DNA from: an uncultured Alphaproteobacteria bacterium
GTDB lineage: Bacteria > Pseudomonadota > Alphaproteobacteria > RF32 > CAG-239
NCBI GenBank assembly: GCA_944391315.1
Contig: CALXTD010000004.1
Span: 3,973-67,972, forward strand
Direction of reading: 5' to 3'
DNA: 64,000 nt
Shown: positions 50,561 through 61,912 of the stretch, in pieces
Layout of the letters: every line of letters starts with the position of its first letter
Numbering within the stretch: the stretch's first letter is position 1
The notes under the pieces: generated by a model
What the model was told of the DNA's origin: nothing
Databases searched by the model: none
What the model saw: only the letters and a program-made list of their open reading frames with translations
Position numbers and translations under genes: made by a program

Positions 50561-50637
50561 GTATCCGTAGCTCAATTGGATAGAGTGTTGGCCTCCGACG
50601 CCAAAGGTTGTGGGTTCGATCCCCGCCGGATACGCCA
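50561..50637 (+). tRNA. tRNA-Arg (anticodon CCG)
   Basis: Hand-folded cloverleaf: acceptor GTATCCG/CGGATAC, anticodon stem TTGGC/GCCAA with loop CTCCGAC, T-arm GTGGG-TTCGATC-CCCGC, encoded GCCA end. Confidence 0.93.
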
Positions 50638-50643
50638 CTTTTC

Positions 50644-50669
50644 AGCGCCCGTTCAGGGTGCTTTTTTTT
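50644..50669 (+). terminator. Terminator after tRNA-Arg
   Basis: AGCGCCC-GTTCA-GGGTGCT followed by TTTTTTTT. Confidence 0.75.
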
Positions 50670-50864
50670 AGAATAAAGGATTATATGCCCATTGCAGAAG
50701 AGCTTGCCTTGCTGCATTTTGTCGTTCACCAGTATTAATGTCATAATCTTTCTCCTTGGTTTTATAAATATATTTGCTTGGAGAAAACTTGGCAAGGGGT
50801 GGTGTTAGTTTGGGATTATTCTGTTGATGCTCTTGCACTGATGGCTTTAATCATATAGTTTTAT

Positions 50865-51683
50865 ATGCAAGTGAGGTTTTCTATGGAAATGCTTGAAAAA
50901 TATAAGTTATATAATGGTGATTGTTTTGAGGTGTTAGAAAAATTTCCCTCAGAAACGTTTGATATGATTTTTGCTGATCCTCCTTATATGTTGTCCGGTG
51001 AGGGAATCGCTTGTAAAAGCGGTAAGCTTGTTTCTATCAATAAAGGAAGTTGGGATAAAAGCAACGGCATAGAAGAAGATTTTGAATTCCATAAAAAATG
51101 GTTGTCTTTGTGCAAGCGGTTGCTTAAACCTAATGGTACTATTTGGGTTTCGGGAACTTATCATAATATTCTTTCCTGCGGGTATGCCATGCTTTTGCTA
51201 AACTATCATATTCTTAATGATATTGCATGGTTTAAGCCTAATGCCAGCCCAAACATCTCTTGCAAATATTTTACGGCCAGTCATGAAAGTTTGCTTTGGG
51301 CCAGAAAAGATAAAAAAGCCAAGCATTATTTTAATTATAAGGCAATGAAGGAAGGGTATTTTCCTAACGATTTTATCAAAAAGCCCAATATGCAAATGCG
51401 CAGTGTTTGGGCTATTGCCGCAACAAAACCCTGTGAAAAACTCCACGGACGGCATCCGACGCAAAAGCCTTTGGAATTGTTGGAACGTATTATTACGGCT
51501 TCTACCCAAGAAGGTGATTTGATTCTTGATCCGTTTATGGGGAGCGGAACGACCGGTGTGGCCGCTCTTAAGCTTGGTAGAAAATTTGTTGGGGTTGATG
51601 CTGAGAAGCAGTATGTTGAACTGGCAGAACGTCGGATTTCGGATGTTATGAATAATCCGCAAATTACGGGACTGAAATTATAA
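50865..51683 (+). CDS. Beta-class (motif IV before motif I) DNA N6-adenine/N4-cytosine methyltransferase, DpnIIB/DpnA-like
   Basis: DMIFADPPYMLSG, NGTIWVSGTYHNI, WFKPNASPNISCKYFTASHESLLWARK, HPTQKP, ILDPFMGSGTTGV, VGVDAEKQY; start may be 50883. Confidence 0.88.
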   Translation: MQVRFSMEMLEKYKLYNGDCFEVLEKFPSETFDMIFADPPYMLSGEGIACKSGKLVSINKGSWDKSNGIEEDFEFHKKWLSLCKRLLKPNGTIWVSGTYHNILSCGYAMLLLNYHILNDIAWFKPNASPNISCKYFTASHESLLWARKDKKAKHYFNYKAMKEGYFPNDFIKKPNMQMRSVWAIAATKPCEKLHGRHPTQKPLELLERIITASTQEGDLILDPFMGSGTTGVAALKLGRKFVGVDAEKQYVELAERRISDVMNNPQITGLKL

Positions 51684-51692
51684 CAGGTCATT

Positions 51693-52379
51693 ATGTATAG
51701 TCGTTTATATGATATGGCTGATGAAAAGTATCGGCTTTTTGCCTTAAAGCTTTTGCCTGATGTTTGTCAGGAAAAATTGCTTGGTGTGCGGTTGCCAAAG
51801 TTACGTCATTTGGCAAAAGAAATTGCTCGCGGTGATTATCAAAGCTTTTTGGCTCTTGAGGTGCCACCGTTATTTGAGGCGGAAATGCTGTTTGGTTTTG
51901 TTATTGGTTATGCTCCATTGTCTGATGATGAAAAATTTTCTTATCTCGAACGCTTTTTGCCGTTGATTGATAACTGGTCGGTCTGTGATAGTGTGTGTTG
52001 CTCCCTTAAATTTTCGGACAAGGATGAGCTATGGCGCTGGCTTGAAGTTAAACTTAAAGCTTGTTCTGAGCAAGAGTATGTTGTGCGTTTTTGTTTTGTG
52101 ATGATGTTAAATAATTTTGTTTCGGCTGATTACTTAATGCGAATCTTAGCTTTGGTTCGGCAATGTTCTTCGTCGGCTTATTATGTGAAAATGGCGCAGG
52201 CTTGGCTTTTGTCTGTGCTTTTTGTGGCCTTTCCTGACGAGGTGGAGGCTTTTATTTTTGATAAAAAAACCGATGCTTTACTCCTTTCGCTCACGGTACA
52301 GAAAATTTGTGATTCTCTGAGGGTAGAGCGCGGTGTTAAACAACGGTTGCGTGCGTTAAAAAAGAGTTTTGTGTCTTAG
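51693..52379 (+). CDS. DNA alkylation repair (AlkC/AlkD-like HEAT-repeat) protein
   Basis: 228 aa helical repeats; IDNWSVCD resembles the DNWDLVD motif of the family. Confidence 0.65.
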   Translation: MYSRLYDMADEKYRLFALKLLPDVCQEKLLGVRLPKLRHLAKEIARGDYQSFLALEVPPLFEAEMLFGFVIGYAPLSDDEKFSYLERFLPLIDNWSVCDSVCCSLKFSDKDELWRWLEVKLKACSEQEYVVRFCFVMMLNNFVSADYLMRILALVRQCSSSAYYVKMAQAWLLSVLFVAFPDEVEAFIFDKKTDALLLSLTVQKICDSLRVERGVKQRLRALKKSFVS

Positions 52380-60519: not shown

Positions 60520-60521
60520 TT

Positions 60522-60800
60522 AAAAGGTCGTATAACGGTCGATTAGTGCGTTGTCTGCGGGGCAAAAGTGTCCTCACGTACTACTCTGTACGCTCCGGTA
60601 CTTTTGCCCTTGACGCCTACTACTCGACTCGTTCTCCGACCTTTTTGTAAAGCTCGTATAACAGCACATCTAGAGGCATTTTACGCTGTTTCGAAAAATT
60701 CATGTACTACTCTGTACACTAAAATTTTTCTCTCAGCTAGAAATGCCTCTATCTGTAACTGTTCTCCGAGCTTTTGTAAATCTCGGATAACGGGCAAAGG
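60522..60800 (+). repeat. Second array of the palindromic units (A 60522-60646, B 60647-60775, first ~25 nt of a C-type unit 60776-60800)
   Basis: Same order and orientation as 1584-2001; A copies differ at 6 of ~123 positions, B cores at 2 of ~93. Confidence 0.88.
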
Positions 60801-60899: not shown

Positions 60900-60975
60900 A
60901 GGGGTATAGCTCAGTTGGTAGAGCATCGGTCTCCAAAACCGAGTGTCGTGAGTTCGAATCTTACTGCCCCTGCCA
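60900..60975 (+). tRNA. tRNA-Trp (anticodon CCA)
   Basis: Hand-folded: acceptor AGGGGTA/TGCCCCT, D-arm GCTC..GAGC, anticodon stem TCGGT/ACCGA with loop CTCCAAA, T-arm GTGAG-TTCGAAT-CTTAC, encoded GCCA; classic position upstream of secE-nusG. Confidence 0.93.
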
Positions 60976-61012
60976 ATAAAAGAACCGTCCGAAAAGACGG
61001 TTTTTTTATTGG
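60973..61012 (+). terminator. Terminator of tRNA-Trp (17-bp stem containing the T-run)
   Basis: CCAATAAAAGAACCGTC-CGAAAA-GACGGTTTTTTTATTGG. Confidence 0.75.
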
Positions 61013-61017
61013 CATTT

Positions 61018-61162
61018 AGGGGTAGTTGATGAGAACTCACGAGAAGGTGAGTTCGACGCCAAACGAAAGGCGGGCGGGAGCACGCCGGTGAGCGAAAGCG
61101 AATGAGTGCGAAGGAACAAGCATTGCGAAGCAATGTCGCGGACAATCTTACTGCCCCTGCCA
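61018..61162 (+). other. tRNA-Trp-derived tRNA-like unit 1 (acceptor plus T-arm retained, 87-nt GC-rich insert in T-loop, GCCA end)
   Basis: AGGGGTA + 22 nt + GTGAGTTCGA + 87 nt + AATCTTACTGCCCCTGCCA; identical strings to tRNA-Trp acceptor and T-arm. Confidence 0.5.
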
Positions 61163-61199
61163 ATAAAAGAACCGTCCGAAAAGACGGTTTTTTTATTGG
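61160..61199 (+). terminator. Second copy of the terminator hairpin
   Basis: Identical to 60973-61012, shifted by 187 nt. Confidence 0.7.
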
Positions 61200-61204
61200 C
61201 ATTT

Positions 61205-61348
61205 AGGGGTAGTTGATGAGAACTCACGAGAAGGTGAGTTCGACGCCAAACGAAAGGCGGGCGGGAGCACGCCGGTGAGCGAAAGCGAATGAGTGCGAAG
61301 GAACAAGCATTGCGAAGCAATGTCGCGGACAATCTTACTGCCCTGCCA
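61205..61348 (+). other. tRNA-like unit 2, 3' acceptor strand decayed (TGCCCT instead of TGCCCCT)
   Basis: Same as unit 1 until the last 15 nt. Confidence 0.45.
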
Positions 61349-61351
61349 CTC

Positions 61352-61382
61352 AAGATGAAGACGCTAAAAAGCATCTTTTTTA
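61352..61382 (+). terminator. Weak terminator-like hairpin after the tandem repeat
   Basis: AAGATG..14-nt loop..CATCTT followed by TTTTTT. Confidence 0.35.
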
Positions 61383-61396
61383 TAAAATCTTGTCTA

Positions 61397-61718
61397 ATGG
61401 TTTTCTAGAGCCGTTTGCTCAGGTCGAAAGTGTCCTCACGTACTCGTTTGTACGCTGTGGTACTTTCGCCTTTCAAACAACTCTATAAATTCCATTATCC
61501 GAGATTTTTTAAGTGCAGAATGGCTTTCTAGAGCCGTTTGCTCAGGTCGAAAGTGTCCTCACGTACTTCTTTGTACGCTGCGGTACTTTCGCCTTTCAAA
61601 CAACTCTATAAATTCCTTTATCCGAGATTTTTTAAGTGCAGAATGGCTTTCTAGAGCCGTTTGCTCAGGTCGAAAGTGTCCTCACGTACTGTTTGTACGT
61701 TGAGGACTTTTGTTTTTT
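61397..61718 (+). repeat. 123-bp tandem D-type palindromic units (61397-61519, 61520-61642, truncated 61643-61718)
   Basis: Share core CGAAAGTGTCCTCACGTACT..GTACGCTG(C/T)GGTACTTTCG with A-type units; outer arms TCTAGAGCCGTTTG / CAAACAACTCTATA are unit-specific. Confidence 0.88.
61678..61718 (+). terminator. Near-perfect hairpin plus T-run formed by the truncated third D unit
   Basis: GTCCTCACGTAC-TGTTT-GTACGTTGAGGAC followed by TTTTGTTTTTT. Confidence 0.6.
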
Positions 61719-61801
61719 AGAATTTTATTGCTAAACTTTTTAAGAGAAAAAATTTTTCTTTAGCAGTGTCTGTTTTAATCCTTGAAACAAAAAGATAGTT
61801 A

Positions 61802-61830
61802 TTGACATATCTAAAATAATTTACTATCTT
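61802..61830 (+). promoter_or_regulatory. Sigma70-like promoter candidate for secE-nusG
   Basis: TTGACA, 17-nt spacer, TATCTT. Confidence 0.5.
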
Positions 61831-61882
61831 GTCGGCAATGAGGCGGGCGCATTGGGCGAAGCGGCGCAATGTGTCTTGTCGG
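61827..61882 (+). repeat. 38-nt GC-rich module flanked by 9-bp direct repeats TCTTGTCGG in the secE leader
   Basis: TCTTGTCGG-CAATGAGGCGGGCGCATTGGGCGAAGCGGCGCAATGTG-TCTTGTCGG-TTTTTT; shares AGGCGGGCG, GCATTG, CGAAGC, GCAATGT with the 87-nt insert at 61061-61143. Confidence 0.6.
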
Positions 61883-61912
61883 TTTTTTATTTGTTTTTTA
61901 TGGATTTGTTTC

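Follow-up and report, generated by a model that had tools for sequence, protein, structure and literature searches.

What is the 187-nt repeat that follows the tRNA-Trp gene in the 64-kb window (the whole stretch of DNA analysed) of contig CALXTD010000004.1 from an uncultured alphaproteobacterium? We hold, with about even confidence, that it consists of two head-to-tail copies of a miniature (~185 nt), protein-less, non-autonomous integrative cassette with a conserved structured core, called E here. The tRNA-Trp(CCA) gene, with its encoded CCA, occupied 60900-60975 on the + strand (ARAGORN; Rfam RF00005, 68.3 bits), and its 3' end, ...CTGCCCCTGCCA, was the anchor, an attB-like site, of a cassette array. 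A tandem repeat search (TRF) returned a period of 187 nt with 2.1 copies at 60957-61348, and a repeat search showed that 60957-61143 and 61144-61330 were 100% identical, in agreement with the first-pass annotation, which had described two identical copies and a third, decayed start. The third start was AATCTTACTGCCCTGCCA (61331-61348, 18 nt), which lacked one C; base 61349 was the first of the next terminator. When the units were phased by comparison of filled and empty sites, E copy 1 (187 nt) spanned 60976-61162, starting with ATAAAAG and ending with CTGCCCCTGCCA, and copy 2 (186 nt) spanned 61163-61348 and was the same save for one C missing from the terminal CCCC; both lay on the + strand, as did the arms, helices and terminators described below. 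Covariance model R1 matched copy 1 at 61006-61162 with 110.7 bits and copy 2 at 61193-61348 with 101 bits. The motifs named in the first-pass annotation, namely AGGGGTA, GTGAGTTCGA (three copies in the repeat region), the hairpin GAACTCAC/GTGAGTTC, the terminator hairpin and the small hairpins, were all found, and the G+C content of the insert was 53-59% compared with 24-45% in the flanks, as that annotation had indicated. The 87-nt insert had no other occurrence within the window (0 chance matches expected), where E was restricted to the tRNA-Trp locus.

The second copy might be suspected of being an assembly artefact or a trivial private slippage, given that identical 187-nt tandem units are longer than short-read k-mers and that other contigs of the same species carried a single copy. 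However, the unit-unit junction is real and must be present in the reads, and a second assembly (locus L001; loci are numbered L001 onwards) had the same two-copy layout, with 2 mismatches to the window in 6.1 kb (99.97% identity). In addition, non-identical E elements stood in tandem in L032, L096 and L115, which cannot be artefacts. We consider this explanation very unlikely, and a single unit would itself be the feature of interest anyway. For the window, a copy number of at least two is secure but an exact count is not; a circular form would give reads with an identical unit-unit junction.

An exact-protein look-up with the window NusG retrieved ten metagenome contigs of the same species, and E varied in number among contigs with identical NusG. 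Two copies were found in the window and L001, one in L005, L002 and L003, and none at the corresponding junction in L004. The single unit of L005 lay between intact 19-mers, and that of L002 was separated from the tRNA by a gene-carrying block of ~0.9 kb. L003 (filled) and L004 (empty) had a common left flank (...AAAGTTTGCGCTGCCA) and a common right flank (CTCAAGATG...), the joint GC[G/C]CTGCCA was present in both, and the sole difference was the 187-nt element between the flanks in L003, showing that E is a discrete present-or-absent unit (ATAAAAG ... CTGCCA) bounded by a CTGCCA repeat. Insertion polymorphism with precise att-repeat boundaries, as in att-flanked elements, was thus found both in the L003/L004 pair and in the series of 0, 1 and 2 copies. 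Direct repeats of the tRNA 3' end flanking the element, with the tRNA left intact, are the mark of integrative elements at tRNA genes; here they were the 19-nt repeats at 60957, 61144 and 61331, and all cassettes showed the same. The repeat had been thought to be seeded inside the T-arm of the tRNA. The filled and empty sites instead put the boundaries in the terminal CTGCCA, and in L040 the T-stem copy in the element disagreed with the host tRNA, indicating that the exchange lies 3' of the T-stem.

E was found in company. Upstream of tRNA-Trp was an H+-pyrophosphatase gene and downstream were secE, nusG and mscL. A NusG scan of the genome collection gave 80 loci, the host group being uncultured gut Alphaproteobacteria, and the distance from tRNA-Trp to nusG ranged from ~240 nt to >6 kb, the shortest spacing being that of L063, L019 and L023, where the tRNA stood directly before secE. 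The tRNA-Trp-secE spacer, ~0.04 kb to >6 kb long, was a hypervariable array of small cassettes (L011-L068, e.g., L046:2161-5796 and L056:394-5796; window 60976-61900). There were 326 open reading frames (ORFs) in 217 clusters in the array region, and the cargo comprised diverse accessory genes, including AbiEii-like ATPases, restriction and methylase domains, Fic and efflux proteins. Every cassette opened right after ...CTGCCA with an A-rich tract and a terminator hairpin and closed with a mimic of the tRNA end. The cassettes started with ATAAAAA (class A) or NTCAAGATRAAGACGC (class B), so that the boundaries read ...CTGCCA/ATAAAA or ...CTGCCA/NTCAAGAT. The right end of E, AATCTTACTGCCCCTGCCA (61144-61162), was a copy of the last 19 nt of the tRNA, with further copies in the tRNA itself (60957-60975) and, decayed, at 61331-61348. 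It was homologous to the right ends of gene-carrying cassettes; the sequence AGTCCGTGGATTG...CCTGCCA of these blocks and GTCGCGGACAATCTTACTGCCCCTGCCA of E were clearly related. Some gene-carrying cassettes ended otherwise, with ...AAAGTTTGCGCTGCCA (L003, L004 and L042) or ...CAGGGGGTCTTACTGCCCCTGCCA (L012, L041 and L115), and had little in common beyond the terminal (GC.)CTGCCA. Repeated integration at tRNA-Trp, one of the origins first proposed for the repeat, is supported for this locus.

BLAST and nhmmer detected E in many loci, and a pattern scan of metagenomes for the P1 hairpin (described below) added 31 contigs. A covariance model built from 13 sequences recognized 63 E copies, 50 of them distinct, in metagenome-assembled genomes and metagenome contigs of gut RF32-like Alphaproteobacteria. 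All 63 copies sat after a tRNA-type CCA end ('...CTGCCA'), either behind the tRNA, behind another E or behind the ends of several cassette types, and E was on the tRNA-sense strand in every locus where the tRNA or nusG sets the orientation. The tandem E elements of L032, L096 and L115 were divergent, indicating that tandem arrays are a property of the family and not an accident of the window strain. The length of E was steady at ~180-190 nt, and its core was ~90% identical between hosts whose nusG genes were only 73-80% identical in nucleotides. We also observed a variant of 302 nt (L030:5348-5649) with the usual ends and P1 and additional GC-rich hairpin domains in the core. Protein-coding cargo was seen between E modules, inside the core in L037:748-1466, between the 5' arm and P1 in L075:4924-5600 and after P1 in L058:78-400, showing that E modules can flank genes.

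The E element had a regular layout, consisting of a terminator, an inverted copy of the last 28 nt of the tRNA, a purine hexaloop and a direct copy of those 28 nt, the last of which was split at the T-loop position by the GC-rich multi-helix core. At the left junction (60971-61014, again at 61158-61201), inverted repeats and a DNA fold revealed a long hairpin with an intrinsic terminator, whose stem covaried across the E family. Its arms, TGCCAATAAAAGAACCGTC and GACGGTTTTTTTATTGGCA, were 19 nt each and 95% complementary; the 5' arm of this hairpin opened with the preceding TGCCA, placing the junction CCA/ATAAAA inside the stem. The terminator was followed by the 5' arm of E, TGGCA-TTT-AGGGGTAG-TTGATGA-GAACTCAC (61010-61040, again at 61197-61227). 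Alignments with shuffle controls identified it as a diverged copy, in reverse complement, of the 28 nt that end tRNA-Trp, in which TGGCA, a 3-nt bulge and AGGGGNAG ... GAACTCAC aligned to the reverse complement of the tRNA end. As its 5' arm repeats the tRNA end in inverted orientation, E is a long imperfect hairpin with the tRNA-end copy as its 3' arm, and not a fragment of a tRNA-like cloverleaf. The terminus ...CTGCCCCTGCCA recreated the target, and the terminator at the left end of E thereafter serves the upstream tRNA.

The same segments had earlier been taken for a rebuilt tRNA-like minihelix with AGGGGTA as the 5' acceptor strand, and E might accordingly be a tRNA-Trp pseudogene, or a permuted or split tRNA-like gene, with an 87-nt insertion in the T-loop. 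The two halves of the T-stem do lie on either side of the insert and vary along with the host tRNA (GTGAG/CTTAC, GAGGG/CCTTC and GTGAG/CTCAC), and AGGGGTA is able to pair with TGCCCCT. However, ARAGORN and the Rfam tRNA and tmRNA models were negative, with no tRNA match in 60976-61349 even at E<=10. A fold with the T-stem enforced had an energy of -40.9 kcal/mol, 16.8 kcal/mol worse than the best fold (-57.7 kcal/mol). The conserved helix was P1, a competitor of the T-stem, and one subfamily lacked the T-stem 3' strand CTTAC altogether (...AATCGTCTGCCCCTGCCA). AGGGGTA was only partly conserved; together with GAACTCAC it is better read as belonging to a single inverted copy of the final 28 nt of the tRNA, which explains the 5' segments. 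A pseudogene or tRNA-like gene is for these reasons quite improbable. The objection raised in the first-pass annotation, that att duplication by itself would not restore these segments, was fair, and its answer is the hairpin design and not a pseudo-tRNA.

The tRNA-derived segments themselves were real and varied with the host tRNA. The T-stem copies of E matched the host variant in L066 (GAGGG/CCTTC) and in L106 (AACCTTAC). An E-like element on the minus strand of L102 (408-679, 106.7 bits) lay directly behind the tRNA-Ser(TGA) gene of an unrelated AT-rich organism and carried tRNA-Ser-derived segments (CTCAC...CCGCCA). Its right end matched the tRNA-Ser 3' end in the T-loop/T-stem sequence AATCTCAC and the terminal CGCCA, and differed from it in the acceptor 3' strand (CGAAGTC in the element versus CCCATCC in tRNA-Ser).

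Helices P1, P3, P4 and P5 of E were supported by covariation in the model-based alignment. P1 (GAACTCAC-GAGAAG-GTGAGTTC; 61033-61054, again at 61220-61241) had an all-purine hexaloop, and its 3' arm was a copy of the T-stem 5' strand; it was conserved, with 88% of cells paired and G.U in 21 sequences. P3 (GGCGGGC-GGGA-GCACGCC; 61069-61086, again at 61256-61273) was a helix of 7 bp in which a G.A mismatch was kept and GC/AU/CG swaps were found at three pairs; a loop census showed a GNRA loop in ~70% of distinct sequences for P3 and an all-purine loop for P1. All five pairs of P4, (T)GAGC-GAAA-GCGA(A) (61089-61102, again at 61276-61289), had changes on both sides, and this helix was longer in other E subfamilies (e.g., GACC-GAAA-GGTC and TCGGC-CAA-GCCGA). 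P5 was GCATTGC-GAA-GCAATGT (61120-61136, again at 61307-61323) and likewise covaried. In the model-based alignment, 77.9% of cells had a standard pair compared with 69.4% in shuffles (0 of 500 reached the observed value) and 26-38% when partners were slid, and 33 pairs had changed on both sides compared with 23.6 in shuffles. A consensus from MAFFT and RNAalifold contained only the terminator, P1 and P3; P4 and P5 emerged only once the structure had been set by hand and the sequences re-aligned to the model. In the inner helices G.U outnumbered A.C (78 versus 31), which points to the tRNA-sense strand as the folding strand. Folding energies lay far below those of shuffles, and the z-scores of the + strand were -5.2 as RNA and -6.6 as DNA; those of the opposite strand were -4.3 as RNA (weaker) and -6.6 as DNA (equal), and its absolute energy was 5-10 kcal/mol less favourable. 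The best fold of the window copy had an acceptor-like closing stem and a free GCCA. Across the family, 76% of cells in the acceptor-like helix were paired, two positions were mostly mismatched, and GCCA could also pair with the upstream TGGC. Alternatively, the 5' arm can pair with the upstream CCA end through the terminator, and the junction then lies inside a stem of ~30 bp.

The core also held GCGAAAGC (61092-61099) and GCGAAGC (61124-61130), both present in copy 2 as well, which we take to be unusually stable DNA mini-hairpin sequences; they are compatible with a single-stranded DNA form. In one E subfamily, a Shine-Dalgarno-like AAGGAGG followed P1, with no start codon after it.

These folds raise the possibility that E is an expressed gene for a structured small RNA linked to tRNA-Trp, which would be compatible with mobility. 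The 9-bp closing stem with its 3' GCCA overhang would let RNase P and 3' trimming nucleases set the ends, and the copy number would shift by ordinary duplication and deletion. Covariation in P1, P3, P4 and P5, the GNRA loops, G.A pairs and purine-only P1 loops, the excess of G.U over A.C on the tRNA-sense strand, the G+C-rich core within an AT-rich spacer, the constant length and a core conserved more than nusG all speak for such a gene, as do the terminator behind every E copy and a best fold that retains an acceptor-like stem with a free GCCA. Against it, no promoter-like site was found within or before E, a strong terminator lay directly upstream of each core, and the CCA end was paired once the upstream TGGCA was included. 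The 5' strand of the closing stem was often mismatched across the family (pairs 20-346 and 21-344), and there was no match to an Rfam family. Moreover, presence and absence, the scattered array positions and a right end common to protein-coding cassettes require a process at the DNA level anyway. We regard an RNA gene as less likely than a cassette, yet as a strong rival to it. The suggestion of a tRNA-derived structured family was borne out in that E is conserved and structured, matches no catalogued RNA family and is tied to the tRNA 3' end.

The units might also be inert scars, decayed attR-type remnants of larger islands that repeatedly integrated at tRNA-Trp and were deleted. The locus, a hot spot of integration, carries several decayed copies of the tRNA 3' end, no integrase is left in the arrays, and the third start in the window lacks one base, all of which would suit scars. 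But an unvarying length, four helices that covary and GNRA loops would not persist in scars across 50 distinct sequences, nor would ~90% identity across hosts with 73-80% identical nusG, or intact units at different positions, be expected of them, making this origin improbable.

Several results weigh against E as an integrative cassette. Replication slippage between 6-9-nt repeats flanking a hairpin could also cause a precise deletion. E could owe its strong conservation to purifying selection acting on an RNA gene and not to transfer, and GNRA loops and G.A pairs are no less suited to an expressed RNA than to a DNA substrate for recombination. The pair counts come from an alignment that had been fitted to the model, a procedure that favours the structure, and helices P2a and P2b were weak, with 49-56% of cells paired. 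A Pfam search covered 127 array ORF representatives, two further batches of array ORFs and 20 window ORFs, and no tyrosine integrase, IS110-type or HUH enzyme was present among the array-ORF families listed or the window ORFs; in one batch 25 of 77 families were listed, so a single Phage_integrase match there could escape. Only three small serine recombinases of the resolvase/invertase type (192-207 aa) were found, in two loci (L041:226-1435 and L045:660-1256). Since no integrase is encoded in the element, E would be non-autonomous if mobile. Finally, no circular or extrachromosomal form of E was seen, and the viral, phage and plasmid collections lacked E. When the insert and the whole unit were searched as DNA, IMG/VR gave 0 matches, the plasmid collection none and the phage collection only chance matches of 30-45 nt. 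Viral scans with Y-type (class-B) cassette ends gave 0 matches in one case and 5 chance matches in the other, four of which were one conserved stretch of related contigs.

The data nonetheless fit an integrative cassette best; on this reading, E is one of a set of cassettes that gather immediately behind the encoded CCA of tRNA-Trp, before secE, in uncultured gut Alphaproteobacteria. A recombinase encoded elsewhere in the genome would insert cassettes at the tRNA-end sequence, and each insertion would restore that sequence at the right end of the cassette. With the target restored there, new cassettes or a second E could land beside old ones, and tandem arrays would therefore form. The two identical copies of the window may have arisen by a second insertion or by unequal exchange between the flanking repeats. 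The part required in cis would comprise the conserved core and the hairpin, in which the tRNA-end mimic is presented in duplex form. It may work as folded single-stranded DNA, as in integron attC and CTX phage attP, or be made as RNA.

Among known systems, three come closest to E: tandem accretion at tRNA genes, integron cassettes with structured attC sites and the folded attP of CTX phage. CIME-type elements and tycheposon-type arrays accrete in tandem at tRNA genes and include att-flanked, non-autonomous elements without recombination genes. The E array resembled them in its anchor at a tRNA 3' end, in units bounded by a tRNA-end copy that restores the target, in head-to-tail stacking, in diverse cargo and in the lack of an integrase within units. 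It differed from them in that E is ~185 nt, gene-free and endowed with a conserved multi-helix core and an inverted target copy, in that no helper element or integrase was found here, and in that the exchange lay in the last 6-9 nt (CTGCCA) and not in the T-loop or anticodon loop. Integrons likewise array small recombinase-free cassettes, some of them non-coding, at one site, and their attC is a hairpin conserved by structure over sequence, with the cassette boundary a few bases inside the stem. Unlike in integrons, no IntI gene adjoined the array among the families listed for array ORFs and the 20 window ORFs, no RYYYAAC/GTTRRRY core sites stood at the cassette ends, the array ORFs were not co-oriented (28 on + and 30 on -), the anchor was a tRNA gene and each cassette had its own terminator. 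The CTX phage attP is a folded single-stranded site, and IMEX elements exploit host Xer recombinases. As in E, two inverted target copies there form, on folding, a hairpin mimic of the duplex chromosomal site, insertion restores the target and tandem arrays are common. In contrast, the target of E is a tRNA end and not dif, phage genes are lacking, and the use of single-stranded DNA is only inferred for E. Like tmRNA, viral 3' tRNA-like structures, mascRNA and YrlA, E had an NCCA 3' end and T-arm-derived sequence and may close a larger structure with an acceptor-like helix, but it had no tRNA or tmRNA model match, a disfavoured T-arm fold and no tag ORF. In sum of features, E differs from tRNA-gene accretion arrays, integrons and CTX attP by its size, covarying core, inverted target copy and lack of a recombinase nearby.

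It is conceivable, though we think it rather unlikely, that E and its sister cassettes form an undescribed cassette-capture system docking on the 3' end of a tRNA gene. The substrate of such a system would be a folded single strand (DNA or RNA) showing a duplex mimic of the tRNA end; E, with its cis-acting structure complete and cargo lacking, would be the smallest version. The enzyme, a recombinase or one templated by RNA, would have its gene at another place in the genome and belong to a type that has yet to be connected with tRNA targets. The L102 element behind tRNA-Ser suggests that such a design may be retargeted by copying the 3' end of another tRNA. A literature search found no description of the locus or element.

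Should E prove to be a mobile mini-cassette, it would rank with the smallest site-specific integrative units known to us and would illustrate how one element can bring along both a mimic of its target and a terminator shielding an essential single-copy tRNA. Should it prove to be an RNA, it would represent a new class of conserved structured RNA with well-supported helices. Either way, a defined family of 50 distinct sequences with a working covariance model is available, and an integrase-less, highly variable array of accessory genes is exposed beside secE-nusG in poorly known human and animal gut bacteria.

Several other candidates for E were rejected. Its identity as a miniature inverted-repeat transposable element (MITE) disagreed with the lack of further copies in the window and with the position of all 63 copies behind a tRNA-type CCA end. 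A repeat for the RNA of a type III toxin-antitoxin system (ToxI-like) was dismissed as there was no adjacent ORF, the next genes being secE and nusG. ARAGORN and the Rfam tmRNA models were negative for a tmRNA, including the two-piece alphaproteobacterial form, or a permuted tRNA. With permissive thresholds, Rfam 15 gave only chance-level scores of ~17-21 bits over E in the window region (gathering scores 40-82), and nothing beyond tRNA was found on 7 related loci. A resemblance to the hammerhead ribozyme (TTGATGAG...CGAC), noticed by eye, was not kept in other subfamilies. No sigma-54 or sigma-70 promoter consensus was seen within E, and T-box-like pairing of UGGN with NCCA had no Rfam T-box match. 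ORFs of 107 and 122 aa on the minus strand of E had no Pfam match, and family members differed there by 1-nt indels. An IS200/IS605-derived element (PATE), which should have conserved subterminal hairpins at both ends and a Y1 transposase in the genome, stands apart from these as a possible candidate. A duplication-free insertion 3' of a short motif would agree with it; however, the left hairpins varied in sequence, and no tnpA was present among the array-ORF families listed or the 20 window ORFs scanned.

Immediately after E copy 2, the terminator CTCAAGATGAAGACGC...TTTTTT (61349-61385), the 'native terminator' of the window, was recognized by comparison with L002, L051, L046, L056 and others as the left end of a class-B ('Y-type') cassette, truncated here and interrupted by MITE-like repeats. 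In class-B cassettes a conserved non-coding module of ~170 nt lay behind the terminator (L046:2161-2340, L056:394-560 and L024:3762-3930) and had no Rfam family match. The module and the right-end box of the cassette together held three GTCCGTG boxes, two direct and one inverted, in a layout like that of arm-type recombinase binding sites.

The MITE-like repeats formed a family of 123-126 nt with internal hairpins (...GGTCGAAAGTGTCCTCACGTACT...GTACGCTG.GGTACTTTCGCC...) at 60521-60800, 61396-61710 and ~1577-1815 of the window. Upstream of tRNA-Trp were 2-3 copies and downstream 2.6 in tandem; at least one more was present elsewhere in the window, and a copy also lay within the left end of a cassette in L003, L004 and L005. 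Elsewhere in the window, genes for an N6/N4 DNA methylase (50865-51683) and for DNA alkylation repair came after tRNA-Arg(CCG) (50561-50637), and this region (50561-52379) may be another small insertion at a tRNA.

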